DNA of 64,000 bases. Origin: Heterostelium pallidum (lineage: Eukaryota). The notes beneath the pieces are model-generated. The model did not search any database. It was not told the DNA's origin and saw nothing but the letters and a program-made list of their open reading frames with translations. The stretch covers positions 901,410 through 965,409 of the forward strand of contig NW_008805086.1 in assembly GCF_000004825.1 (NCBI RefSeq). The letters are read 5' to 3'. The first letter of the stretch is position 1; each line of letters opens with the position of its first letter. Shown here in pieces: positions 6,995-64,000 of the stretch. The position numbers were made by a program, and so were the translations under genes.

Positions 6995-9340
6995 TTAATA
7001 ATGTTGAGACTTTAATTTACTTTTGAGATCGGATAGCATTTCGTTGAGAGCATTATCATGACTATCAATATCGAATGATGTGAATTCAGTTTCATCATCT
7101 GTTTTAGTCGATGAAATTCCAGACGGAATTGATGGAATTAATGGACTTGATTTGTGTAGATCGAATTGATGATTGTTGTTGTTGTTATTGTGAGTATTCA
7201 TTTGGTTTGCATTTCTTGATTTTTCAGAGGGTTTGGTTTCCTCTAGGTCTAAAGATGATCGAGTTTTTTCACTTGGTTTTGTTTCACTGCTGCCTTCCGG
7301 TTTGTCAGTTTCAGTTGGCTTGTCTTTTGGTTTATCAGTTTCAGTTGGCTTATCGGTTTCAGTTGGCTTGTCTGCGGGTTTATCAGTTTCTGTTGGCTTG
7401 TCTGCGGGTTTATCGGTTTCAGTTGGCTTGTCTTTTGGTTTATCAGTTTCAGTAGGTTTATCAGTTGGCTTGTCTTTTGGTTTATCAGTTTCTGTTGGCT
7501 TATCAGTATCAGTTGGCTTGTCTGCGGGTTTATCAGTTTCTGTTGGCTTGTCTTTTGGTTTATCAGTTTCAGTTGGTTTGTCTTTTGGCTTATCAGTTTC
7601 TGTTGGCTTATCGGTTTCAGTTGGCTTGTCTTTTGGTTTATCAGTTTCAGTTGGCTTATCAGTATCAGTTGGCTTGTCTGCGGGTTTATCGGTTTCAGTT
7701 GGCTTGTCTTTTGGCTTATCAGTATCAGTGGGCTTGTCTTTTGGTTTATCAGTATCTGTTGGCTTGTCTTTTGGTTTATCAGTTTCAGTGGGCTTGTCTT
7801 TTGGTTTATCAGTTTCGAGTTGGCTTATCAGTTTCTGTTGGCTTATCAGTATCAGTTGGCTTGTCTTTTGGTTTATCAGTATCAGTGGGCTTATCAGTTT
7901 CTGTTGGTTGGTCTTTTGGTTTATCAGTTTCTGTTGGTTTGTCTTTTGGCTTATCAGTATCAGTTGGCTTGTCTTTTGGTTTATCAGTTTCTGTTGGCTT
8001 ATCAGTTTCTTTTGGTTTATCAGTTTCTGTTGGCTTGTCTTTTGGTTTATCAGTATCAGTTGGCTTCTCTTTTGGCTTATCTGTTTCGGTTGGTTTGTCT
8101 TTTGGTTTATCAGTATCTGTTGGCTTGTCTTTTGGCTTATCGGTTTCAGTTGGCTTGTCTTTTGGTTTATCAGTTTCTGTTGGCTTATCAGTATCAGTTG
8201 GCTTGTCTGCCGGTTTATCGGTTGGTTTGTCTTCTGGCTTACCAGTTGGCTTATCAGTTGGTTTATCAGTTGGTTTATCAGTTGATGGAGTTTGCGATGG
8301 AGTTTGCGAAGGAGTATGGGATGGAGTTTGCGAAGGAGTATGGGATGGAGTTTGGGATGGAGTTTGGGATGGAGTTTGGGATGGAGTTTGGGATGGAGTT
8401 TGGGATGGAGTTTGCGAAGGAGTTTGGGATGGAGTATGGGATGGAGTTTGCGAAGGAGTTTGGGATGGAGTTTTAGATGGAGTTTGAGATGGGGTTTGGG
8501 ATGGAGTCTGAGATGGAGTTTGAGATGGAGTTTGCGATGGAGTTTGCGAAGGAGTTTGAGATGGAGTTTGAGATGGAGTTTGAGATGGAGTTTGCGAAGG
8601 AGTTTGTGTTGGCGGCTCTGTAGGCAAACGTGATGGAGTATGAGTAGGTTTCTCTGTTGGTTTATCAGTAGGTTTTTCTGTTGGTTTGTGTGTTGGCTTA
8701 TGTGATGGTTTTTCTGTTGGTTTTGTGGTCGGATTATGTGGTTTATCTGTAGGTGGATTTATATCTGAGATAAATAGTATTAATAATCTAAAAATAGAGC
8801 CAAGTATTTCCATTTGTATATTTCACTTACCCACACATCTTGGTACATTAGGACAACACGATGTACCATGACAATTTCCAGGTGATGGTCCCCATTGACA
8901 AACCATTCCTTTCGCCTCACATTGGAGTGTACCACAGGTATCTCTTGGTGGTTCGAAATAGGTAAAGTTTCTCGAGGGTTTGCAAACACTCCAGAATTCG
9001 ATTACTTCGCCAGTGACTTCATTTCTACCACAAGAGTTTATATTTTCACAATTTCCAATGTTTCTGTTGACACAAAAATGAACTGTATTACCACAACAGC
9101 TTATAAATGGCATATATTGACATTTCGGATATAGTTTTGTACAAGTTTGTTCATCATTAATATTTTCACAATTACCTCCTGGAAATAATTTGAAAAAAAA
9201 ATAATGATTAGTAAAATGTTACATGGATACCTTTTAAATATTTTAAACATAAAATACAAACCATATTTTCTTAATCTAAAAGAGCTTACAAAATGAATAT
9301 AGATTATTAAAATTAATATAATATAGTTTATTAATTTCAT
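6995..9340 (-). CDS. secreted Cys-rich N-terminal domain + Thr/Pro/Lys-rich mucin-like tandem-repeat protein (5' exon tentative; internal frameshift near 7817)
   Basis: Candidate signal-peptide exon MKLINYIILILIIYIHF (9340-about 9290). Cys-rich exon 8831-about 9183 (18 Cys, ...CQWGPSPGNCHGTSCCPNVPRCV) ends at a GTAAGT donor, followed by a 66-nt intron 8765-8830. The last exon 6995-8764 encodes TDKPKDKPTE and PSQT repeats and a C-terminal tail ending at the stop codon (6995-6997). The minus-strand ORF is split by a +1 shift at a tcagtttcGagttgg unit. Confidence 0.55.
7230..8640 (-). repeat. coding tandem repeats: about 30-nt TDKPKDKPTE units (7230-8280) and 12-nt PSQT units (8290-8600)
   Basis: Periodic ttatcagtttcagttggcttgtcttttgg units and ggagtttgggatgg units are visible directly. 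All six frames stay open across them, which explains the long mirror-frame ORFs on the plus strand. Confidence 0.85.
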
Positions 9341-16530: not shown

Positions 16531-17071
16531 ATATTTATTTGTAAACAAATAAAAAATAAATTGTTAATGAAACAAATTTCTAAAGTATCAATTTAAATAT
16601 ATTAATCCAAATTATGATATACTTATTTGGTACCAAGATAATACAATGATGTGTATATAGTGTAGATCTTTTTTTTTTCTATTCAATATATTCTAGTTTT
16701 CTATCGTTTGTTGCAGTAGCTTTGTTATTTACTTCACATTGTATTCGATTTATTGATTAGTTTTACTTATTATTAGATTAGATTCCATTGAAACAATTTT
16801 TAAATTTAATAATCATGAATGTGATCAAAAAGGAACTTAAATCAAACATGAAAAGCAACTTGAAGACTGTAGTATTTTCATTTATTAATTTTGTTTGTGT
16901 ATCGGGAATATTGATGTCCAAGTACACTTCGACGGGGCAAGCACGAATCCTCAGCTCAACAACAATAAGACAAACAAATATAAAAGCAAAACAATTTAAG
17001 ATAAAATCAAAGCTAAATATATTATTTAATAAAATTTAAATATTTGATTTTATAATTAGTTGTTGTATACA

Positions 17072-17250
17072 CGGGAGGCAACCAGCATAGGGACGAGAGG
17101 AGACCAGCATAACTACGAGAGATAACTGGCATAACGACGAGAGGAAACCAGCATAATAACGAGAAGAGTCTGGATTAACGACGAGAGGAAACCGGCATAA
17201 TAACGAGTGGAGTCTGGCATAACGACGAGAGTAGACCGGCATAGTAATTG
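17072..17250 (+). repeat. tandem array of about 22-bp repeats (family A: ggcataacgacgagaggaaacc)
   Basis: About 8 direct copies with variants (ataactacgagag, ataataacgagaag). Confidence 0.85.
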
Positions 17251-17639
17251 AAGATACAAATCATATATGTAAAAAATGATTATTTTGAATTAAATATATA
17301 TTTTTTTATTAAAAACCAAAAAAAATAAAAAAATTAATAAATGTAATTATAATTGATCAAATCAATTTTTTTTAAAGTAAGTTAGAATACTACCACACAC
17401 ATATCAATAATATATGCTATGTTAAGAGAAGTGAGGTGATTTACAATAGATCAAGATTGCAAGAAGATTATAAAGAATTAAGAGAAACTAATTAAAAAAT
17501 AAATTTAAATCTTTTTATAGGTTGAATGGTTTCACTTCACTGTTATAATTAAATTAAATCAGTTGTTTCCGAATTAAGTTCTTAATTACTCAGACATCAA
17601 AAAAAATTATTAAAGATTTTATATAAACATTTAGACAAT

Positions 17640-18120
17640 AAAATACAGCTACCAACAGAACCACAACTGACAACAACCACAACATCAAATAATTCATCAA
17701 CACCTCCAAACTCACTCATTTCCAGAAATATTTCATAAAGTTGAGGTTGATGATGTTGTTGGATAAGCGATAGTGGAATGACATTTGCTACTTCTGCTCC
17801 TGGTCAAGTAATTCAACATTTATAAGTATTTGGATTCAACAAAATTACTATTTCAATAAAAATTTAAACTACCCTTATAATTATCTATTAATTTTATTTT
17901 ATCGATTTGTGAAACTGAAGGAGTAGTTGAGCAGATGGAAATTGAGAGTGGCGTGTTCATCGGTAACCTAGTTATGGAGTTGATGGTAATTGAGTTGTAG
18001 AGTTGATCGAAACTAAGATATGTAGTTGAGGTAAGTATCTACAGTATCTGAGTTGTGGAGTTGACGGAAACTCTGGCTTCGGGCAACTAAGTATGGCAAT
18101 TGAGTCATCAACTCAGTCCA
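17640..18120. repeat. left inverted-repeat core (reverse complement of 24123-24515)
   Basis: For example 17725-17840 (ttcataaagttgaggttgatgatgttgttggataagcgatagtggaatgacatttgctacttctgctcctggtcaagtaattcaacattta) matches the reverse complement of 24365-24480. The left arm also contains an extra internal tandem copy. Confidence 0.8.
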
Positions 18121-18475
18121 GTTACTCAGTTCGGTAACTAAGTCAGTCCGGTAACTAACTCAATCTGGTAACTCAGTCCGGTAACTCAGTCCGGTAACTA
18201 ACTCAATCAGGTAACTCAGTCAGGTAACTCAGTCCGGTAACTCAATCCGGTAACTCAGTCCGGTAACTGAGTCCGGTAACTGAGTCAGGTAACTGAGTCC
18301 GGTAACTAACTCAATCTGGTAACTCAGTCCGGCAACTCAGTCCGGTAACTAACTCAATCTGGTAACTGAGTCGGGTAACTAACTCAATCTGGTAACTCAA
18401 TCTGGTAACTGAGTCCGGTAACTAACTCAATCTGGTAACTCAGTCAGGTAACTCAGTCCAGCAACTAAGTGGAAT
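18121..18475 (+). repeat. tandem array of 13-17-bp repeats (family B: ggtaactcagtcc / ggtaactaactcaatct)
   Basis: More than 20 direct units are visible directly. Confidence 0.85.
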
Positions 18476-21345: not shown

Positions 21346-23484
21346 GATTTATTTAATATATAAAAGTAATGAAATATATTTAAGAGTTTGTATGTTAAGT
21401 ATGATTTAAAAACGATCCAAAGGCTAAAATCTAAATTTATAATATCTATTTATGTATATATGTAATTTAATAATACTAATTTATTTTGAAATTTTTCACT
21501 CATTATATTTTTTAATTTTTTTTTTCTCAATACAATATTGTTTTTGATTGTATAGGGACATAGATAGGATTCTGATATTATTTCTTTTGTTTATTCAAAA
21601 GGCTTCACTAATCACTAGTAGTGATTGAACACTTTCAATTGCGTAAGTGGCAAAACAACAATTTTATGACAATAATTGAAAACTATCAAAAATAAAATGA
21701 AAAAGTAATAAAAATAAAGATAATTTCTTTAAATAAAATTAAAATTAATTTATTTCTTATTTTTAAAAGAAGAGAGTAAATGAGAAATCAACTATCTCTT
21801 TATTATTATTATCGATCACTATCTAAAACTATATTTGATAGAAATTTGAAAGATATATGTTAGTTTTGATCAATATTTTTCTTGAAAATATTGAGATATT
21901 AATAAAACTTACTTAGAAATAACAAATTAATATGAATATTACTTATATTGAAAAGAAAAATTTCGATATTAATAGTATTTACTAGTCTATAAATATTTAA
22001 AATAGATTTAAAAACAATCAATAATAATAAGAAACCGCCAAATTTTGAAAATAATTAACGTCATTTTATCCGATACTCTCAATTAAATAGAATAATATTT
22101 AAATATATAGATGTCTTAATTTAAAAGTTTGGTTGATGTTTTTTGATTGGCAAAAATATAAAAATAAAAAAACACACAATAAGAATAACCCACCCACACT
22201 TGACATTGTCATTCAATACCAATAAATCGTGAATCAAATCAATTAAATTGTGTTTCACTTTTAAATAAACAAACAAATATAATTTATTTAGATTTTATTT
22301 TGGTAATATATTTATCTCAACATAAAAGAAAGATTATTATATTAATTAAATATTTTATTCAATGAATACAACAAGTTGATATTTAAAATTAAAACAAAGT
22401 AATTTTTACTTAAAACTTTCAATTTTTTATTTATAATCAATTTATTTGTTAAAAGTATAAAAGATAATTTATTTAATTCTTAGTTTAAAAATATTAAATA
22501 AAAAAAACTAGAAAATAAAAGTGTACATTCCTTTGTTTTTCATTAAAGTTATTTAATGTTTCACCTTAACTCAACTTCAAAAAATAACAAACTAATAGTA
22601 ATCTTTAGATGAGTGTGATAATAGAAATATCTTGATATCATATATCATAATAATAATGTAATACAGATAAGATAAGAAAAAAGTTAAATCATTTAACTTG
22701 GTTTTATTCAATTGAAGAGTACAATCAACACTTACAATCTTGGGAAGTACGAATTATCAATATGACTATGAAAGAGATGTTTAGGAATGATGAATAAGTT
22801 GAACACTTTAATCTAACTATAGAATTCAATTTGAAATTTTCATTTTATAGTAAATCACTTCTATTCTAGTATAATTGTAATTATTGTTTTAGGACAGATT
22901 TCACGAATCAATCTATTACTATTACACAATATAATCATCTTACAATTTAAATAAATAATTATAGTTTTCAATTACAATAATAATATTCTTCAATTATTTT
23001 ATTTAACAAAAAACAACAATATTATTTTATTTTTGCAACATAAAAAAAAAAAAGATGAACTTGTCAAATAAAAATGGGGTGTTGCAAATTCAATAAATTA
23101 ATAAAATTTAAAATTAAGCTTGTTGTTTCTTCATTGGTAATGATCGCCTGTTTTTTTTATTTTTGAATATTATATTATAATAAAATGAATTATTTAATTA
23201 ATTTTAATATTTATATTTCAAATTTGAATATTAATTCAAACTTTTAATTGGCGCTTAACGGTTGCCGCCATTTTTGAGTTCAAACTGTAAGTTAACGAAT
23301 CAAATTTAAAACTATATAAACCTATAATTTCTTTCACAATGTCATTTTTCATTATTTTTCAAATACAAATAATTTTGTAAGTAATAACTAATAGTTATAA
23401 CTTTAACTTATTTATATCTTTGTTTTACTAACTCTTTGTTTTATCTCTTTTTATCTCTTTCTTCTTTTCCAAGTCCTCTTTACC

Positions 23485-24122
23485 ATGCCAGTTGCCTCCT
23501 TACTATGAGTGATGCCTCGTTGCTATGATGGTTACCTCTCATTACCATGCCAGTTGCCTCTCGTCGTTATGCCAGTCTCCTCTCGTAGTTATGCCGGTTT
23601 CCTCTTGTAGTTATGCCAGCTTCCTCTCGTCGTTATGCCCGTCTCTTCTCGTTTCCTCTCGTTACTGTGCCCGTTTCCTCTCGTAGTTATGCCGGTTACC
23701 TCTCGTAGTTATGCCGGTTACCTCGTTACTATGCCGGTTACCTCTCGTTACTATGCCGGTTTCCTCTCGTCATTATGCCTGTTTCCTCTCGTCATTATGC
23801 CTGTCTCCTCTCGTAGTTATACCGGTTACCTCTCATTACCATGCCAGTTTCCTCTCGTAGTTATGCCTGTCTCCTCTAGTCGATATGCCAGTTGCCTCTC
23901 GTAGTTATGCCGGTTTCTTCTCGTTACTATGCCGGTTTCCTCTCGTAGTTATGCCTGTCTCCTCTCGTAGTTATGCTGGTTTCCTCTCGTAGTTATACCG
24001 GTTTCCTCTCGTAGTTATGCCGGTTTCCTCTCTTTGTTATGCCGGTTGTCTCTCGTAGTTATGCCAGTCTCCTCTCGTCACTCTGCGGGTTGCCTCTCGT
24101 CACTATGCCGGTTTCCTCTCTT
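23485..24122 (+). repeat. tandem array (about 29 copies) of the 22-bp family-A repeat in inverted orientation (atgccggtttcctctcgtagtt)
   Basis: Visible directly. It is the reverse complement of the 17072-17250 unit. Confidence 0.9.
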
Positions 24123-24592
24123 TAGTTGACTCAGTTAACTCAATTGCCGTACTTAGTTGCCAGAATCCAGAGTTTCAATCAACTCCACAACTCGGATGCT
24201 GTTGATAGATACCTCGACTCCATAACTCAGTTACCAATGAACACGTCACTCTCAATTTCGATCTGCTCGACTACTCCTTTACCATCAGTTTCACATTTTG
24301 ATAAAATAAAATCAAAAGATATAATTAAAAAGGTAGTTTAAATTTTTATTGAAATAGTAATTTTGTTGAATCCAAACACTCATAAATGTTGAATTACTTG
24401 ACCAGGAGCAAAAGTAGCAAATGTCATTCTACTACCACTAATCCAACAACATCATCAACCTCAACTTTATGAAACATTTGGGGAAATGAGTGGGTTTGGA
24501 GGTGTTGATGAATTATTAGTTTCTCGTTACTATGCCGGTTGACTCTCGTAGTTATGTCGGTGTTATGCCGGTTTCCTCTAGTGGTTATGCCA
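24123..24592. repeat. right inverted-repeat core (24123-24515) plus a short family-A array (24520-24592)
   Basis: See the left core. The terminal segment is tttctcgttactatgccggttgactctcgtagttatgtcggtgttatgccggtttcctctagtggttatgcc. Confidence 0.8.
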
Positions 24593-55802: not shown

Positions 55803-57827
55803 ATGTCAAATAGTATAGCAGATCTACCAAATCATTTATTAAAGAAAATAGTTTTAAATGGTCTTTCAAATTTAGATTGTGTATGTCCAAATTTAGTATG
55901 TAAGAAGTTGTTTGAGAATAGAGAGAAGTATCTTTATTTGACTTATCTCTTTCAAGTGTCATTAAGAAATGTGAAACACAGATATGTCTAAAGTCTTATG
56001 CCAATATTTTACAGAAAGGTGTAGAGTTGAAATCATTCAACAATGAGTGCATAATGAAGTTGTTCAGTACACCACCAGATAAAGTGAGTGGATTTGAACA
56101 AACCTATGATTATATAGATTCATTTGGTAATAATATTATTATTATTATACCATATCAAAACATATATATACTAACAAGTTTTAATAATTTTTTTTTATTT
56201 CTAATAAATAAATAATTATAAAGATAATCCAAATATGAAGATACCTAGTGGTGTAAAGAATTTGACTATTGCTGGAGATGGATTCGGTCAGTTACCTGAT
56301 CTCTCGATGTGTAATGCTAGATCGATCGTTCTCTTTACTGGTGGCGTTTTGGAGATCAAGAAAGATACTCTACCAAAGATGCTGAAATCTTTATATCTCT
56401 CATCTACGCTGCAAGACAACTTAGAGCCCGGGATATTCCCTGATGGCATTGAAGAGATTAGCTTTGCAGAGAGCAATAGCCAGTTCTACCAAGCAAACCT
56501 CTTCCCTATCGGTTTGAAAAGACTGTGTCTGCATTCAAACAATATCGAACCATTCACTGATGGATCACTGCCATCTACTCTGGAGAGTCTCGCCATTGAT
56601 TTAAATTGTTTTCTCTCAAATACCAAGTATCTTAAACACCTTGGTTCTTTAAGTAGCTTAACCTTTTCCTATAATACCGGTGCACCTTCGGATCCAACTA
56701 AACTAAGAGGCGCACTCAGCTGCTTTGCAAATCTATCATCAGTATCATCTATTCCCTACAAGTATCTTTGTTATTTACCAAAGACACTAAAACGGCTCAC
56801 TCTCTGTGAGGATGAACTCGATGGAATAACCATTAAAAGTGATACATTCCCACCTTCACTTACTGAGCTCGATATGTTAGAGGTAATGGATTTCAAAATA
56901 GAGATTGGTAGCATACCTGCATCTGTTCAAAGATTATCAATACGAGTGGATCACCAGCTCAAACCTGGAATGTTACCGGCGTCACTTATCGATTTGGTGA
57001 CAAAGGCATCCAAAGAAGGTGAAGCCTCATCCTTCTTTCTCTTGGCTGCTGGTTTGGGTGCGATTGGTTTCGGTTCAACAGCAGCGGCTGCCTTCTTGGT
57101 GGTTGCCTTCTTTGGCATCGCAGGCTCATAGTCATCATCATCATCGGAATCCAAAGTCTTCTTCTTGGGAGCAGCTTTAGCTTTTCTGGTTCTTGGTAAA
57201 GCTGTCTTTCCTTTGACAGACTTCTTGTATTTGTCTCCTTTATCTTTAAGTCTTTGATCCTCTGCGTCTTGTTTCTTAATCACTGCCATGACGAATGTAG
57301 ATACATTCGTAGTAGGATCATTGCCTAATACTCTAAAGAGTCTGGTGTATCATCCCTCCATTACAGTACCATCATTGAAACCATTGGTATTGCCTAACTC
57401 TCTCGAGGAACTCACACTCGGATACCTCTGTAAATCTAATCTCAAGCCGAATGTGTTGCCACCTAATCTTAAGAAGCTCTCATTGTTATGTAAATATAAA
57501 GTTAAATTACCAGACCCTGCTGTATACCCTTTATCGCTAACAGAATTGGATTTGAAATCTTCAATATTGGTTAGAGACGATCAACACCAATCCACACTAA
57601 AGCCAACTGATTATCCGGGATTGAGTGTTCGACTTGATCCAAATTACTTTATCAAAAACACACTGGAGAGCATACCACTTCAAATCACGACAATAGATCT
57701 TACCAGTATAAAGCTAAGAAGAATCAAAGACAATTTATTCATATGTATATCAGGTGGATTCATCAACAATACAAAGCAACTTAGAAATCATTTGTCATTA
57801 TTAACTAAAAATAAAATAGTAATATGA
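55803..57827 (+). CDS. FNIP-repeat protein (Dictyostelium-type LRR-like repeats) with F-box-like N-terminus; interrupted by a 285-bp duplicated top2 segment (56993-57276)
   Basis: N-terminal MSNSIADLPNHLLKKIVLNGLSNLDCV. FNIP-type units recur: IPSGVKNLTIAGDGFGQLP, LPSTLESLAIDLNCF, GMLPASLIDL, GSLPNTLKSLVYH, LPNSLEELTLGY, LPPNLKKLSLLCKY. As sequenced the ORFs are 55803-55991, 56027-about 56131, 56235-57131 and 57288-57827. The 5' intron positions are tentative. Confidence 0.5.
56993..57276 (-). repeat. about 99 percent identical duplicate of the first 285 nt of the top2 terminal exon (copy 1; partner at 62329-62613)
   Basis: On the minus strand it encodes KQDAEDQRLKDKGDKYKKSVKGKTALPRTRKAKAAPKKKTLDSDDDDDYEPAMPKKATTKKAAAAVEPKPIAPKPAAKRKKDEASPSLDAFVTK, and ORF 56951-57289 starts from its own ATG at the junction. 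It differs from the top2 copy by one C-run length and by cttcttctt versus ctttttctt. Confidence 0.85.
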
Positions 57828-58658: not shown

Positions 58659-59903
58659 TAAACATAGTATTAGTAATTTATAACACAAAACAAAGTTAAA
58701 CATTGATTTAAAATTTTAGAAATCAATCGTCTTTAAGATCAAATATAAATCCAATATTGATAATAAGTTTAACTTGTAAACAACACACAATCTATTAGAT
58801 GGCGGATGAGCATCTAAACTAAAAGAGATTATAGAGATAATTATTTTTACTGCTCAAAAGTGGTCTCAAAATAACATTTGATTATGATAATGCTTTCTGG
58901 ATGTGTTTATTGTATGATAGATGTACATAATATCTCATATTATATTCCAAAAAATACACTTTTGTTCATTAGAGATAGAGTTTCGGACCTAGTTCGTTTC
59001 CTCTTGATTGTAGATTTGCAGCAAAGATCTTATTAATAGTTATTAAGTTTTCATTTAGTTAGTATTTATTTGAACTGGTGAGTTACAATTTTAGAGGATA
59101 TTGATGATTAAGAAAATGAGTTGTGTTTTGTGTTAATAAAACCTTCCACATTTTGAGATATCAAATGATGTAACTGATTGTTTTAGCCCATCAATTTGTT
59201 TGATTCAGTGAATGAAAACGATTGGTTGATATTTTCAGCAATGTTATAATTAATCAAAAAAAATAAATATGAATGCAAAGTATGTAGGAGACATAATATA
59301 GTTAATTCTTTGAATTCAAGTTGCAACCCATCGACAACCCATTTTTGTATATTATTGTTTTTTGAATAATTCCCCAAAACATTACCTCATATCAAGTGAT
59401 AAAATATCTAAAAAAAAGTTATAAATAATTTTGGTGATGAGCCGATAATTAGAACCATCACCTTTTTTTTCACTAAAAAAGATATTGGATAAAACCAAAA
59501 TTAAAAAAAAAAACAAATTGGTTTATTTAATGCAATTTACATCTATACCCTGCAAGATGGGGTATCAGTAAGTATCGATTCAATTCCTAAACAATCAACT
59601 TTGGAATGATTTCAGAAGATAGAATCATTGCCATCATAATTGATCAGTGTACTTTTGTGGTGTAATGATTGAACGATATGACGTCGAAGATTAAATAAAC
59701 ATAGCAATAACAAACTAAATGAGATTATAAAAAAACCTTCTTAAAGAACTGGACACCAACAAAGAAAATGGGGAATACTGAAGATAGATATTTTTAGGTT
59801 AGGAAGGTTTTTTCTGTTTTGAAGAGTTGTTTGATTGGATTATAAATAGAACCATTCTTTCCTCATTCAATTCTTTCATTAATTCATTTATATATATATA
59901 AAA

Positions 59904-60834
59904 ATGATGTTCAAAAAAACAATTATTTGTCTTGTTTTTACTATTGTTTTATGTTTGTCTTGGTTGAGTGCAGCCAATGCTTTGACTCAAACAGCCAAGC
60001 AAGTCGCAATTTCACCAGGTTCCTATATGTGGTATTTGGAGTATCTTCCACCAACTTACTCTGCGACAGGACCAAATAAATCTCCAGTCCTTATTTTCTT
60101 ACATGGTGTTGGGCAAAATGGAGACGGATCACAAGGTGCCCTTCAAATGCTTAAGGATGCTGCAGGTTCTCCTCCATACATGATCGACAAGAATACATGG
60201 CCAACTACTTTCTCTTTCATTGTAATATCACCACAAACCTGGGGTTGGTGGGATTCACCAAAAGTAAGTTAATAGCTGTTAGGTTTATCATTATAGAAAT
60301 GTATTAATTTTAATTTATATTCTAGACTGTTCCATTAATTAATCAAATTGGAGCTTTATATCCAGGTGCCGATATTACAAGAGTCTACTTAACTGGTCTT
60401 TCCATGGGTGGAGCAGGAGTTTATGATACCATGCGTCAAAGTAAAGCTGTTTGTGATAAGTTGGCTGCGGTTATTCCCATTTGTGGTGCTCAAGGTTTTG
60501 GTGCCAACGATTGGATTGGTCCAGTTACATCAGTAAGTTAAATAAGAATAGATTAAAATTATTACTTTTAAATAAAAACTAATTGAAATCTTTCTTATTA
60601 TAGGGATTGCCAGTGTGGGCTTTCCATAACTCTAATGACCCGACGGTCTCTGTTTGGAATTCTAGAAACTGGGTAAATGGTTTGAATGCTCAAAATATTT
60701 GTCCAGTTGCTAAATATACAGAATATGTTGCTTCTTCTCATGATGCTTGGACTAAAACTTATGATGTTTCACCAACTAATCCAAACAATATCTACTCTTG
60801 GATGCTTTCATACACTACCAACAGAGTATCATAG
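59904..60834 (+). CDS. secreted alpha/beta-hydrolase esterase (PHB-depolymerase / carboxylesterase-like); exons 59904-60263, 60322-60532, 60604-60834
   Basis: Signal peptide MMFKKTIICLVFTIVLCLSWLSAANA. Oxyanion region PVLIFLHGVGQNG. Nucleophile elbow LTGLSMGGAG. Acid/His region VWAFHNSNDP...YVASSHDAW. Two GTAAGT introns, phase 0. Confidence 0.8.
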
Positions 60835-61807
60835 TGGTGGAACTACTTCTACCACAGGAACACCATCAACCACTGCACCATCAACTACAACCACAACCAC
60901 AGGAACACCATCAACCACTACACCATCAACTACAACCACAACCACAGGAACACCATCTACCACTACACCATCGACTACAACCACAACCACAGGAACACCA
61001 TCAACCACTACACCATCTACTACAACCACAACCACAGGAACACCATCTACTACTGCACCATCTACCACTGGAACTCAAACACCAACCCCAACATCAACTC
61101 CAGCTCCAGGAGTTTTCCAAAGAAAGTGGACTACTCCAGCCTCTCCATTTGGTTTCTGGGAGTACAGACCATCAACCACTCCAACACCAGGTATTGGATA
61201 TCCATTAATTATCCATCTTCATGGAGCTGACGGTGAGGGTACTGGTAGTTCCACTGATTTGAACAAAGCAGTTCAGACTTCATTACCAAAGTACATTAGA
61301 ACTGGTGAATGGCCAACTACCTATCCTTTCTTGGTACTTTGTCCACAAAACAATGGTATTTGGGATGCCGGAGTAAGCAATGTAATCAACACCTTGCTTG
61401 ATCTCTACTCGCCAGAGGTTGACCCAACTAGAATTTATTTGGTAGGTCAAGGTCGTGGTGCTCTTGGTGTAGTTCAATATTTGAAGAGCAATGCTACTCG
61501 TATCGATAGAACTGCAGCAATCTTCAATGTTAGAGTTTACACTGATGCTCATAACGCTACCATTGATCTCATGGTCAATGATCACCTTCCAACATGGTGG
61601 TTAACCAACAACGATGATCCAAACTCTGATCCAATCATGACAAAGAACTGGGCTAACTTCTTAAATGCACGTGGTGCCAACCCAGCTGCAAGACTAACTA
61701 TTAACCCATCTGGTGGTGCTGACTCATACACACCAGCATTCAACCCTGCCAACGCTGACCCAAACAATGTTTACAATTGGCTTCTATCAAAGACCAATGT
61801 TAGATAA
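60686..61807 (+). CDS. paralogous esterase-like protein: Thr/Pro-rich linker + hydrolase-fold domain lacking the catalytic Ser (GQGRGALG); start inferred from an ATG overprinted on the 3' end of the upstream gene
   Basis: The 373-aa ORF starts at a real ATG at 60686, in the +1 frame of the upstream gene's last exon. Its N-terminus MLKIFVQLLNIQNMLLLLMMLGLKLMMF is hydrophobic. A (GTPSTTTPSTTTTTT)n linker follows. The domain PLIIHLHGADGEGTGSS...VGQGRGALG...NVYNWLLSKTNVR* is collinear with the domain of gene 59904-60834. Confidence 0.45.
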   Translation: MLKIFVQLLNIQNMLLLLMMLGLKLMMFHQLIQTISTLGCFHTLPTEYHSGGTTSTTGTPSTTAPSTTTTTTGTPSTTTPSTTTTTTGTPSTTTPSTTTTTTGTPSTTTPSTTTTTTGTPSTTAPSTTGTQTPTPTSTPAPGVFQRKWTTPASPFGFWEYRPSTTPTPGIGYPLIIHLHGADGEGTGSSTDLNKAVQTSLPKYIRTGEWPTTYPFLVLCPQNNGIWDAGVSNVINTLLDLYSPEVDPTRIYLVGQGRGALGVVQYLKSNATRIDRTAAIFNVRVYTDAHNATIDLMVNDHLPTWWLTNNDDPNSDPIMTKNWANFLNARGANPAARLTINPSGGADSYTPAFNPANADPNNVYNWLLSKTNVR

Positions 61808-61950
61808 ACCAAATAATTTTTTAATAAATAAAATGTTATTATTTAAACAATTTCAATTTCCTGGAACGCGGACACTAAAATAATGATTAAATGTGGAATG
61901 GTTGTTTCGAGTTTGATTTTATTTAATATTTAATCTAATGGTTGATGTGT

Positions 61951-64000
61951 TTAATCATCACTGTCATCACCGATGGCATCGTCACTATCATCAGAGGTAA
62001 AGAAGTTCAACTTTGGAAGTGTATTTCTAGTTCTAGTTGGTCTTGGTTTTGGTGGTGGTGTTTCTGCATCAGAGGCCTCCGATTCCTGATCACTGATAAA
62101 ATCAGATTCTGATTCTGATTCTACCTTTTTCTTTTTGGCAGCGGCCTTCTTCTTTGCGGGAGCTGGTTTTGGTGGAGCTGGTTTGCTAGTTTCTTTGACC
62201 TTCTTTGTTGGTGGTACAAAGTCGTCATCGTCATCATCAACGATAAATGAATCTTGATCTACATCCATACTATCATCATCTAAATTAACAGTTGCAACCT
62301 TCTTTGCTGCGGCAGCTGGTTTACTGACTTTGGTGACAAAGGCATCCCAAAGAAGGTGAAGCCTCATCCTTCTTTCTCTTGGCTGCTGGTTTGGGTGCGA
62401 TTGGTTTCGGTTCAACAGCAGCGGCTGCCTTCTTGGTGGTTGCCTTCTTTGGCATCGCAGGCTCATAGTCATCATCATCATCGGAATCCAAAGTCTTTTT
62501 CTTGGGAGCAGCTTTAGCTTTTCTGGTTCTTGGTAAAGCTGTCTTTCCTTTGACAGACTTCTTGTATTTGTCTCCTTTATCTTTAAGTCTTTGATCCTCT
62601 GCGTCTTGTTTCTAAGTAAATTAAAATAAATGTTAATAAGTTGTTGATATAGTAATGATAGATATTGATAGGATTGATAGTTACATCAAGAGATTCCGAG
62701 AATTTATCTAAATCTAAAAGATACATTGTTGTGATGGCAGTTCCTCTAAGTTTATCGAGTTCAACCTTCTTCTTTTCTCTTTCCTCTTGGATCTTCTTGA
62801 CACGCTCCAATGTCAAACTCCACAATGGTAGAGAGAGCAGGTAGTCGTATCCTCTGCAGTCGTCATCCATTTCCATTTCATCGTCGGATCCTTCTTCTTC
62901 TTGGTCAGAATTAACAGCGAGTTCCTCTTCTACCTTGTCGACCTTTGATTTCTTGACTTGCTCTTCAGCCTTCTTACCGACCTTCTTTGAGAACTGATCA
63001 AACTTCATCTCTTTCAATTTCTTTACCAAGTCGAGTCGCTTTACATTGGCAATCACAAGTTCCTTATTGACCACAGCAAGGATAAATCTAGCTTTGTTTG
63101 AAAGTCTTCTGTGTTCCTCTTCAAGTTTATCACATAAATAATCCTATTTCATGAAAATAAAATTAATAAATAAATATTGAATCGTTAAATTAAAAATAAA
63201 TATATTAATTATATATACCTTTCTCTTTTGATAGTATTCCAATCTAATCTTGAAGAAATATTTGATGATATCGGTTGTTGTTTCGAATTGTTTGATTCTA
63301 CCTTCTTCATCAAATACAGTCATATTGGTTTCTGCCAATTTCTTTTCCAATTTAAAGGTCTTGTTAACATCGATTTCATCGACTGGCTTCAATGTTTCAA
63401 TAATGAAATGAATAGAACCAACTGTACCTTGATTGGACATTGACTAAATAATAATAATAACAGCAATAATTAATAAACTTGATTCGAAGACGTTTGAAAG
63501 ACTTTTTTTTTTTTTTTTACTTACTTTGACAATTGGATCAGCAATAACAACTTCATCATCATCTTCATCCTTCTTCTTTCTCTTTACAACCTTGGTTGAT
63601 GTAGCTTTACCTTTCTTGACTTGTTTAATCTTTTCTTTGGCTTCCTTTCTCTTTTGTTTGCCTTGTGGATCAATGAGATTCTGTACGAGATCCTTAAAGT
63701 CATTTGTCCAAGACTCGATGGGGAGTTCGGTAATCTCCAAACGATATTCGTCCAACTTTCTCCAGACACCCTTGGCAACGAAATTCGATGTCTTTCCAGT
63801 TTGAAGCTCGATGGTGCCTTTGAATCCTCTGTACCATGGCACGATTGGCTTCAATTCTTTGCCTTCGATGAGCAACTTCATGTTCTCAATCAAGTCACGT
63901 GGGTTGTAGTTGGGAATGGTCGATGACCAACCAGTACCGATACCCTTGGATCCATTGACCAAGATCATAGGGATCACTGGAATGTACCATTTCGGTTGGA
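61951..64000 (-). CDS. top2: DNA topoisomerase II, 3' portion (continues beyond the window end); exons 64000-63525, 63443-63219, 63143-62685, 62611-61951; apparent 1-nt frameshift at about 62346
   Basis: MIPMILVNGSKGIGTGWSSTIPNYNPRDLIENMKLLIEGKEL..., IIKYFFKIRLEYYQKRK|DYLCDKLEEEHRRLSNKARFILAVVNKELV..., and YDYLLSLPLWSLTLERVKKIQEE all align to human TOP2A. The acidic/Lys-rich tail ends ...PRPTRTRNTLPKLNFFTSDDSDDAIGDDSDD*. Donors are GTAAGT, GTATAT and GTAACT. The terminal exon reads in two frames joined at ggcatCCCaaag. Confidence 0.85.
62329..62613 (-). repeat. top2 terminal-exon segment that is duplicated at 56993-57276 (copy 2, in situ)
   Basis: See copy 1. The boundary at 62613 lies 2 nt into the top2 intron (the acceptor AG). 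The other boundary at 62329 lies inside the exon. Confidence 0.85.

Follow-up and report, generated by a model that had tools for sequence, protein, structure and literature searches.

A 64,000-nucleotide (nt) window of the genome of the dictyostelid Heterostelium pallidum (RefSeq assembly GCF_000004825.1, contig NW_008805086.1, positions 901,410 to 965,409 of the forward strand) contains two tandem esterase-like domains, an upstream domain (D1) with a complete catalytic triad and a downstream domain (D2) whose triad is incomplete and whose reading frame is +1 relative to that of the first. A first-pass annotation of this window interpreted the pair as two genes, the second of which was proposed to initiate independently at an overprinted ATG, read in the +1 frame within the last exon of the first (position 60686; all coordinates are those of the window). 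Here, we present evidence that the two domains very probably belong to one ancestral two-domain gene that carries a one-nucleotide break, and that there is no overprinted start. The interval 59904-61807 would constitute a single gene encoding a signal peptide, an active Ser-Asp-His esterase (D1), a Thr/Pro-rich linker, and a catalytically dead D2 with the elbow sequence GQGRG, and one extra base within GTATCATAG (60826-60834), at the boundary of D1 and the linker, would break its frame. Furthermore, we weigh the possible origins of this break and show how it has affected the deposited model of the gene.

Organization of the esterase locus

The features of the locus are as follows.

59904-60263, plus strand: exon 1; the start ATG has an A-rich context, and the coding sequence that follows specifies the signal-like peptide MMFKKTIICLVFTIVLCLSWLSAANA and the N-terminal half of D1.
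60264-60325, plus strand: intron 1, 62 nt, GTAAGT...TAG, G+C content (GC) 0.19.
60326-60532, plus strand: exon 2, with the nucleophile elbow GLSMG (Ser146 codon at 60401-60403).
60533-60603, plus strand: intron 2, 71 nt, GTAAGT...TAG, GC 0.14.
60604-60834, plus strand: exon 3 in frame 0, with Asp201, His235 (60739-41), the conserved C-terminal helix NIYSWMLSY, and the end RVS-TAG (60832-34).
60686-60834, plus strand: +1-frame open stretch containing ATG 60686, judged to be a chance open frame that is untranslated.
60766-60826, plus strand: the bridging "intron" of the GenBank model, 61 nt, judged to be an annotation artifact.
60826-60834, plus strand: the zone that must hold the one-nucleotide frame break, limited on the left by the codon of Arg (60823-25), after which no frame-0 residue is conserved, and on the right by GGT (60836), with which the linker opens.
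60836-61096, plus strand: Thr/Pro-rich linker in the +1 frame, including a 45-nt tandem repeat present in 4.7 copies (60851-61062, 95% matches).
61097-61807, plus strand: D2, an intronless and by its sequence catalytically dead alpha/beta-hydrolase domain, with GQGRG at 61445-59, the Asp kept (NNDDP, 61607-21), His replaced by Ala (GGADSY, 61712-29), and the stop TAA at 61805-07.
61823-61828, plus strand: AATAAA, within the AT-rich 3' flank; the locus has no other hexamer resembling a poly(A) signal.

The description of the upstream gene (gene 1) in the first-pass annotation as a complete secreted esterase was reproduced: it has three exons encoding 265 amino acids (aa), its product ends in NIYSWMLSYTTNRVS, and the stop codon TAG follows directly at 60832-34. 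Removal of intron 1 makes D1 collinear again with its homologues. A TATAAATA box lies upstream of the start, at 59841-59848. The Ser-Asp-His triad is present, in that Ser146, Asp201, and His235 align with the GLSMGG, DP, and GHDAW motifs of bacterial relatives. D1 matches the crystal structure 4Q82, an alpha/beta-hydrolase fold, with an E value of 1.7e-30 over residues 41-259, a match that extends through the terminal ...IYSWMLSY. The Pfam model Abhydrolase_2 (PF02230) is matched by residues 59-83 only, at 23.4 bits against a cut-off of 23, and homologues of D1 retrieved in our search are already annotated with this family; D2 has no Pfam match to PF02230. Taken by sequence comparison, D1 is assigned to the phospholipase/carboxylesterase branch of the alpha/beta-hydrolases.

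D2 (236 aa, 61097-61804) is, as had been noted, a tandem paralog collinear with the product of gene 1, to which it is 32% identical over its whole length (E 9e-33). It has also lost the nucleophile Ser and the His, with GQGRG where D1 has GLSMG and GGADSY where D1 has SSHDAW (Ser to Gly, His to Ala), so that the catalytic-triad columns read Gly, Asp, and Ala and the triad is incomplete. Its AlphaFold model has a predicted local distance difference test score (pLDDT) of 90.8, and its best match in the Protein Data Bank (PDB) is again 4Q82, the esterase from Haliangium ochraceum, which superposes with a template-modeling (TM) score of 0.81. The D2 reading frame is open for 323 codons, a length reached in 0 of 20000 shuffles, and the domain retains 46/46 columns that are invariant among D2-type domains. 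D2 is accordingly predicted to be a pseudo-enzyme with an intact fold.

The D1-D2 fusion is conserved

D2 was used as the query in an index-free search of 1.84 billion (1.84e9) representative proteins. Its only close relatives in that library were P0121 (the protein of this locus), P0122, P0123, and P0124, each of which carries a D1-type domain upstream in the same protein, and no stand-alone copy of D2 was found among the 1.84 billion. An index-free search was needed: a word-indexed protein search with D2 gave no matches, and the word-indexed search with D1 failed to return the protein of the locus itself even though it is in the collection. The named relatives of D2 are DLAC_03291 of T. lacteum (820 aa, with the 822-aa cluster-mate DLAC_04935), DLAC_06820 (423 aa), and one EukProt protein (P0123), and their D2 domains are 38-46% identical to that of the window. 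They share with the window gene the domain order, the GQGRG elbow, and the lost His; DLAC_03291, DLAC_06820, and the EukProt protein each consist of a D1-type esterase, a Ser/Thr/Pro linker, and a D2-type domain in a single polypeptide.

The genomic DNA of DLAC_03291 is particularly informative. The segments D1-linker-D2-linker-D3 form one uninterrupted open reading frame (ORF), reading ...NIYSWMLQFTNVRSSSTTSA..., with the junction ...NIYSWMLQFTNVRSSSTTSAAS..., and the sequence is continuous apart from one N-terminal intron, whereas the window copy has a one-nucleotide break at the D1/linker junction. The two also differ in that DLAC_03291 has an extra third, active domain and the window gene has two domains. 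The T. lacteum locus is in frame through the junction. The closest homologue of D1 itself is T. lacteum DLAC_09628 (53% identity), in which ...TNVR runs directly into a Thr/Pro linker. In that protein (L001 10001-10984) the linker is followed, in place of a second domain, by a hydrophobic tail, SSAITLSSSISAILLLISLVIIF, that resembles a glycosylphosphatidylinositol (GPI)-anchor signal. Because the relatives of D2 are fused to D1 and D2 never stands alone, a single secreted two-domain protein appears to be the ancestral, conserved state.

The overprinted ATG at 60686 is unlikely to be a start site

The frame geometry on which the two-gene model was built is correct. The +1-frame ATGs lie at 60686, 60725, 60740, 60743, 60761, and 60764, the next one only at 61571, so that there is no start between the stop of gene 1 and D2, and the D2 frame is indeed open back to ATG 60686. 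According to that model, the linker and D2 are translated from this ATG within the last exon of gene 1, with the +1 peptide MLKIFVQLLN... acting as a signal sequence. An ORF of 373 aa does exist at 60686-61807 and has no other ATG upstream, its +1 peptide is hydrophobic, and the AT-rich intron 2, which lies 83 nt upstream of the ATG, could in principle contain a promoter. Nevertheless, we regard an independent downstream gene as extremely unlikely. D2 is fused in frame behind D1 in every relative found, and the open run that covers the overlap is of a length commonly produced by chance: it spans 50 codons, and among the long ORFs of the window 6% of the +1 stop-to-stop gaps reach at least 50 codons, with a position-weighted probability of 0.20 that at least 50 codons have passed since the previous +1 stop. 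The overlap is thus no longer than chance would provide.

Coding signal in the overlap is confined to frame 0. In windows beginning at 60694, 60724, and 60754, which together span 60694-60783, the frame-specific codon score is +5.7, +9.8, and +6.4 in frame 0 and +2.1, -1.2, and -4.1 in frame +1. The context of ATG 60686 is poor, with a T at -3, whereas the true start at 59904 sits in an A-run, and two short upstream ORFs in the same frame start at 60635 and 60677. Additionally, gene 1 is followed by neither a spacer nor a poly(A) signal of its own. ATG 60686 and its "leader" would be the upstream tail of the D2 frame, extending back to the first chance stop, and not a site of initiation. The apparent overprinted start illustrates how a multi-domain gene broken by one nucleotide can look like a pair of overlapping genes.

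A one-nucleotide frame break at the D1/linker junction

Removal of a single base within 60826-60834, for example T60832, yields one 589-aa ORF that reads ...TTNRVSSGGTTSTTGTPS... / ...TTNRVSSGGTTS... through the junction. The first-pass annotation had named, as a fallback, a homopolymer indel that would make the region one two-domain protein; the evidence favors an indel with that consequence, and there is no homopolymer in the junction sequence ...AGAGTATCATAGTGGTGG....

Signals that would mark a boundary between two genes are absent. Between 60835 and 61800 there is no AT-rich spacer, no promoter-like gap, and no AATAAA. The GC content stays at the exon level (0.33-0.49) without interruption from 60600 to 61800 and drops to 0.19-0.25 in both introns and both flanks. 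Since the GC content is unbroken and the only AATAAA lies after D2, at 61823, nothing points to a gene boundary at 60834 or to a second start.

The deposited model, PPL_04534

The locus is already represented in the databases. P0121, a 551-aa protein identical to the window, is EFA82839.1 / XP_020434956.1, hypothetical protein PPL_04534 of Heterostelium album (Polysphondylium pallidum) PN500. GenBank thus treats the region as one gene, using an ab initio model. The first exon of this model is 11 nt long (ATGAATGCAAA, 59269-59279), lies approximately 690 nt upstream, and is spliced into codon 23 of the true ORF. The model thereby misses ATG 59904 and the signal peptide. At the other end of D1, it bridges the two frames with an intron at 60766-60826 that deletes VSPTNPNNIYSWMLSYTTNR.

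If GenBank were correct, this 61-nt intron (GTTTCA...AG) would be genuine, it would join ...WTKTYD to YHSGGTT..., and the mature protein would lack VSPTNPNNIYSWMLSYTTNR. The intron has GT-AG borders and a typical length, 61 mod 3 equals 1, which is the required frame change, and it is part of the deposited annotation. We nonetheless consider it very unlikely. Its GC content of 0.377 is exon-like, compared with 0.19 and 0.14 in the real introns, and its donor is GTTTCA rather than GTAAGT. The frame-0 coding score is positive across its 5' part, the later windows including the TAG. The deletion would remove the terminal helix that is kept in every homologue, including the bacterial ones, is ordered in the crystal structure 4Q82, and is present in the D2 model (H225-230). 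Moreover, exon 3 offers 20 GT...AG pairs with an identical effect on the frame, so that a gene predictor will always find a bridge, and the same model mis-starts at the 11-nt exon and skips the signal peptide.

Splice bridges were also considered more generally as candidates. All 20 GT...AG pairs with the right frame change delete conserved D1 sequence and were rejected, and the cryptic splice from 60673 to 60834 that the first-pass annotation had offered as an alternative fails on arithmetic: it removes 162 nt, a multiple of 3, and frame 0 therefore cannot reach the Thr/Pro frame.

A precedent for such a model exists. In D. discoideum, single-base errors of the reference were found to be masked by artificial introns (Singh et al. 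2017, PMC5282741), and the P. pallidum genome was sequenced by dideoxy and Roche 454 methods (PMC5282741). As in PPL_04534, a conserved domain is out of frame in those artifacts and an implausible intron restores the frame. The D. discoideum cases involved introns of <5 bp and were shown to be errors by RNA-seq, whereas the bridging intron here is 61 nt long. Neither the supplements of PMC5282741 and PMC4931340 nor a full-text search contained an entry for PPL_04534. The locus matters mainly as a correction: one gene is already deposited, and its model is wrong at both ends of D1.

Origin of the frame break

It is directly observed that the gene has a conserved two-domain architecture, that the break lies at the stated position, and that signals of a gene boundary are missing. 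As to the cause of the break, which we infer, we give an even chance to a mistake in base calling or assembly of the reference, which combines 454 and Sanger data; the cell would then make the 589-aa fusion. The dideoxy and 454 basis of the assembly, the intactness of D2, and a second frameshift 1.5 kb away are the evidence for such an error. The second frameshift, an apparent +1 shift, lies in the C-terminal tail of the minus-strand Top2 gene (61954-62611), where the coding potential changes frame at approximately 62345-62375 and no intron is present. This break coincides with a CCC run (62346-48) that is CC in a 99.3%-identical paralogous copy (56993-57276), and removal of one base at the run gives the continuous sequence ...DEASPSLDAFVTKVSKPAAAAKK.... 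Several points weigh against a reference error in the esterase gene. The break lies outside a homopolymer, the kind of site at which 454 errors concentrate, and because of this a genuine mutation is nearly as likely. The frame-0 product is a complete esterase domain with a stop codon, and a D1-only protein would be viable. Exact-sequence look-ups gave no match for the 265-aa product of gene 1, the 373-aa ORF, the 75-aa ORF of exon 3, or the repaired products, which were 589 aa (with either an RVSS or an RVHS junction) and 399 aa long. A metagenome DNA pattern across the junction had 0 matches, and a profile-based search for the locus in metagenomes returned only distant, apparently bacterial relatives of at most 39% identity.

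It is possible, although we would put it forward only tentatively, that a real one-nucleotide insertion occurred in PN500 or in the species, leaving a secreted D1-only esterase that ends in ...NRVS, with the linker and D2 surviving untranslated in the 3' untranslated region as a relic of very recent date. A sequencing error is less expected at a site without a homopolymer, D1 is complete in frame 0 through its terminal helix, and insertion of a T or an A would by itself produce the TAG. The D2 ORF, moreover, may stay open by chance, the probability of no stop being 0.7 at 1% and 0.17 at 5% neutral divergence. Set against this, D2 shows no decay, retaining its 323 open codons and all family-invariant residues, which implies that the lesion would have to be very recent, and with a second frameshift in the neighboring Top2, local sequence quality is a more economical explanation than two mutations. 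A real insertion would be a recent gene truncation and not an overprinted gene. The least probable of the readings considered is a programmed +1 ribosomal frameshift of the antizyme type at UCA-UAG-U (60829-60835), by which termination would yield D1 and a shift over the U of UAG would yield D1-linker-D2. The zero-frame stop does stand exactly at the only possible place for a shift, in the form NNN-UAG-U, which the UCC-UGA-U of antizyme resembles; D2 is intact; and a 9-bp hairpin (GUGGUGGAA/UUCUACCAC, 60834-60855) begins at the G of the TAG. The site is not conserved, however, as the relatives are in frame, and a stop at this position is also expected from a single inserted T or A. The hairpin region is no more stable than shuffled sequence (100-nt fold, z = -0.84; 38/200 shuffles fold as well), and frameshifts due to error or mutation vastly outnumber true +1 frameshift genes. 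If the extra base were genuine and such lineage-specific frameshifting true, one mRNA would give rise to both a free esterase and an esterase-pseudoesterase fusion and, to our knowledge, dictyostelids would thereby have their first described +1 recoding site apart from those of antizyme-type genes.

Repeats and other features of the window

The paralogous sequence at the Top2 gene is part of a 285-nt direct repeat (56993-57276 and 62329-62613, 99.3% identical with one 1-nt gap), the copies of which bracket approximately 5.3 kb that include the esterase locus. Copy 2 forms part of the final exon of Top2, a minus-strand gene, and its end coincides with the 5' border of that exon; copy 1 overlaps two ORFs, an FNIP-repeat ORF on the plus strand (56235-57131) at its 3' end and a 112-aa ORF on the minus strand (56951-57289). 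A genuine recent duplication and an assembly artifact are both conceivable origins of the repeat. When the whole window was scanned crudely for frame switches, the output was noisy: only the Top2 case was convincing, the esterase junction went undetected, and no error rate per kb can be derived. The stop codons of long open segments in the window are TAA (25), TGA (12), and TAG (4), a count in which true stops and intron stops are mixed and which was not used as evidence.

Elsewhere in the window, an imperfect tandem repeat array at 7290-8640, 75-83% identical, is open in several frames, and the arrays at 17070-18470 and 23480-24520 form an inverted pair approximately 5 kb apart that flanks unannotated ORFs.

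Bacterial relatives and predicted function

The homologues of D1 (n=776, E <= 0.001) appear to be overwhelmingly from Bacteroidota, mostly from Chitinophagaceae where an organism is named, and frequently carry a type IX secretion system (T9SS) sorting domain. Because the named relatives of D1 outside the dictyostelids are essentially all Bacteroidota, their distribution suggests that the D1 family was acquired by an old horizontal transfer from a bacterium to an amoeba. D1 has gained two introns since; there are none in D2 or in T. lacteum DLAC_09628. D2-type domains with the GQGRG elbow were found in the 1.84e9-protein search only in dictyostelid and EukProt proteins.

D1 would hydrolyze ester bonds in a bacterial or plant polymer, and D2 may serve as a non-catalytic module for substrate binding, scaffolding, or spacing, tethered by a Thr/Pro linker that is probably O-glycosylated. 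That several dictyostelids conserve, behind an active esterase domain, a dead one with a fixed GQGRG elbow is of modest biological interest. Both the dead domain and the bacterial look of the family are unsurprising for secreted hydrolases of bacterivorous soil amoebae.

Comparison with known esterases and depolymerases

The secreted PF02230-type esterases of Chitinophagaceae are 35-42% identical to D1 and share with it the GLSMGG, DP, and GHDAW motifs and the C-terminal helix. The window gene differs from these bacterial esterases in being eukaryotic, with introns, and in having a Thr/Pro linker where the bacterial proteins have PKD or T9SS modules. Two proteins of Bacteroidota, P0128 and P0129, have tandem esterase domains of which one copy is without the Ser and the His (for example, GIAVGG / SLADSW). 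The pairing of a live and a dead domain thus recurs independently in bacterial members of the family.

A second comparison is with the depolymerases of polyhydroxyalkanoate (PHA) and polyhydroxybutyrate (PHB). Identification of the product as a PHA depolymerase was considered and rejected, as its scores against the curated models fall far below their cut-offs: D1 scores 35.3 against a cut-off of 150 (NF050058) and 15.2 against 107.85 (TIGR01840), and D2 scores 12.3. The weak similarity to NF050058 is accompanied by a likeness in architecture, in that PHA/PHB depolymerases are likewise alpha/beta-hydrolases that are secreted and in which a Thr-rich linker leads to a C-terminal module without catalytic function. 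In PHB depolymerases that module is a PHB-binding domain, whereas in the window gene its place is taken by a dead copy of the catalytic domain itself.

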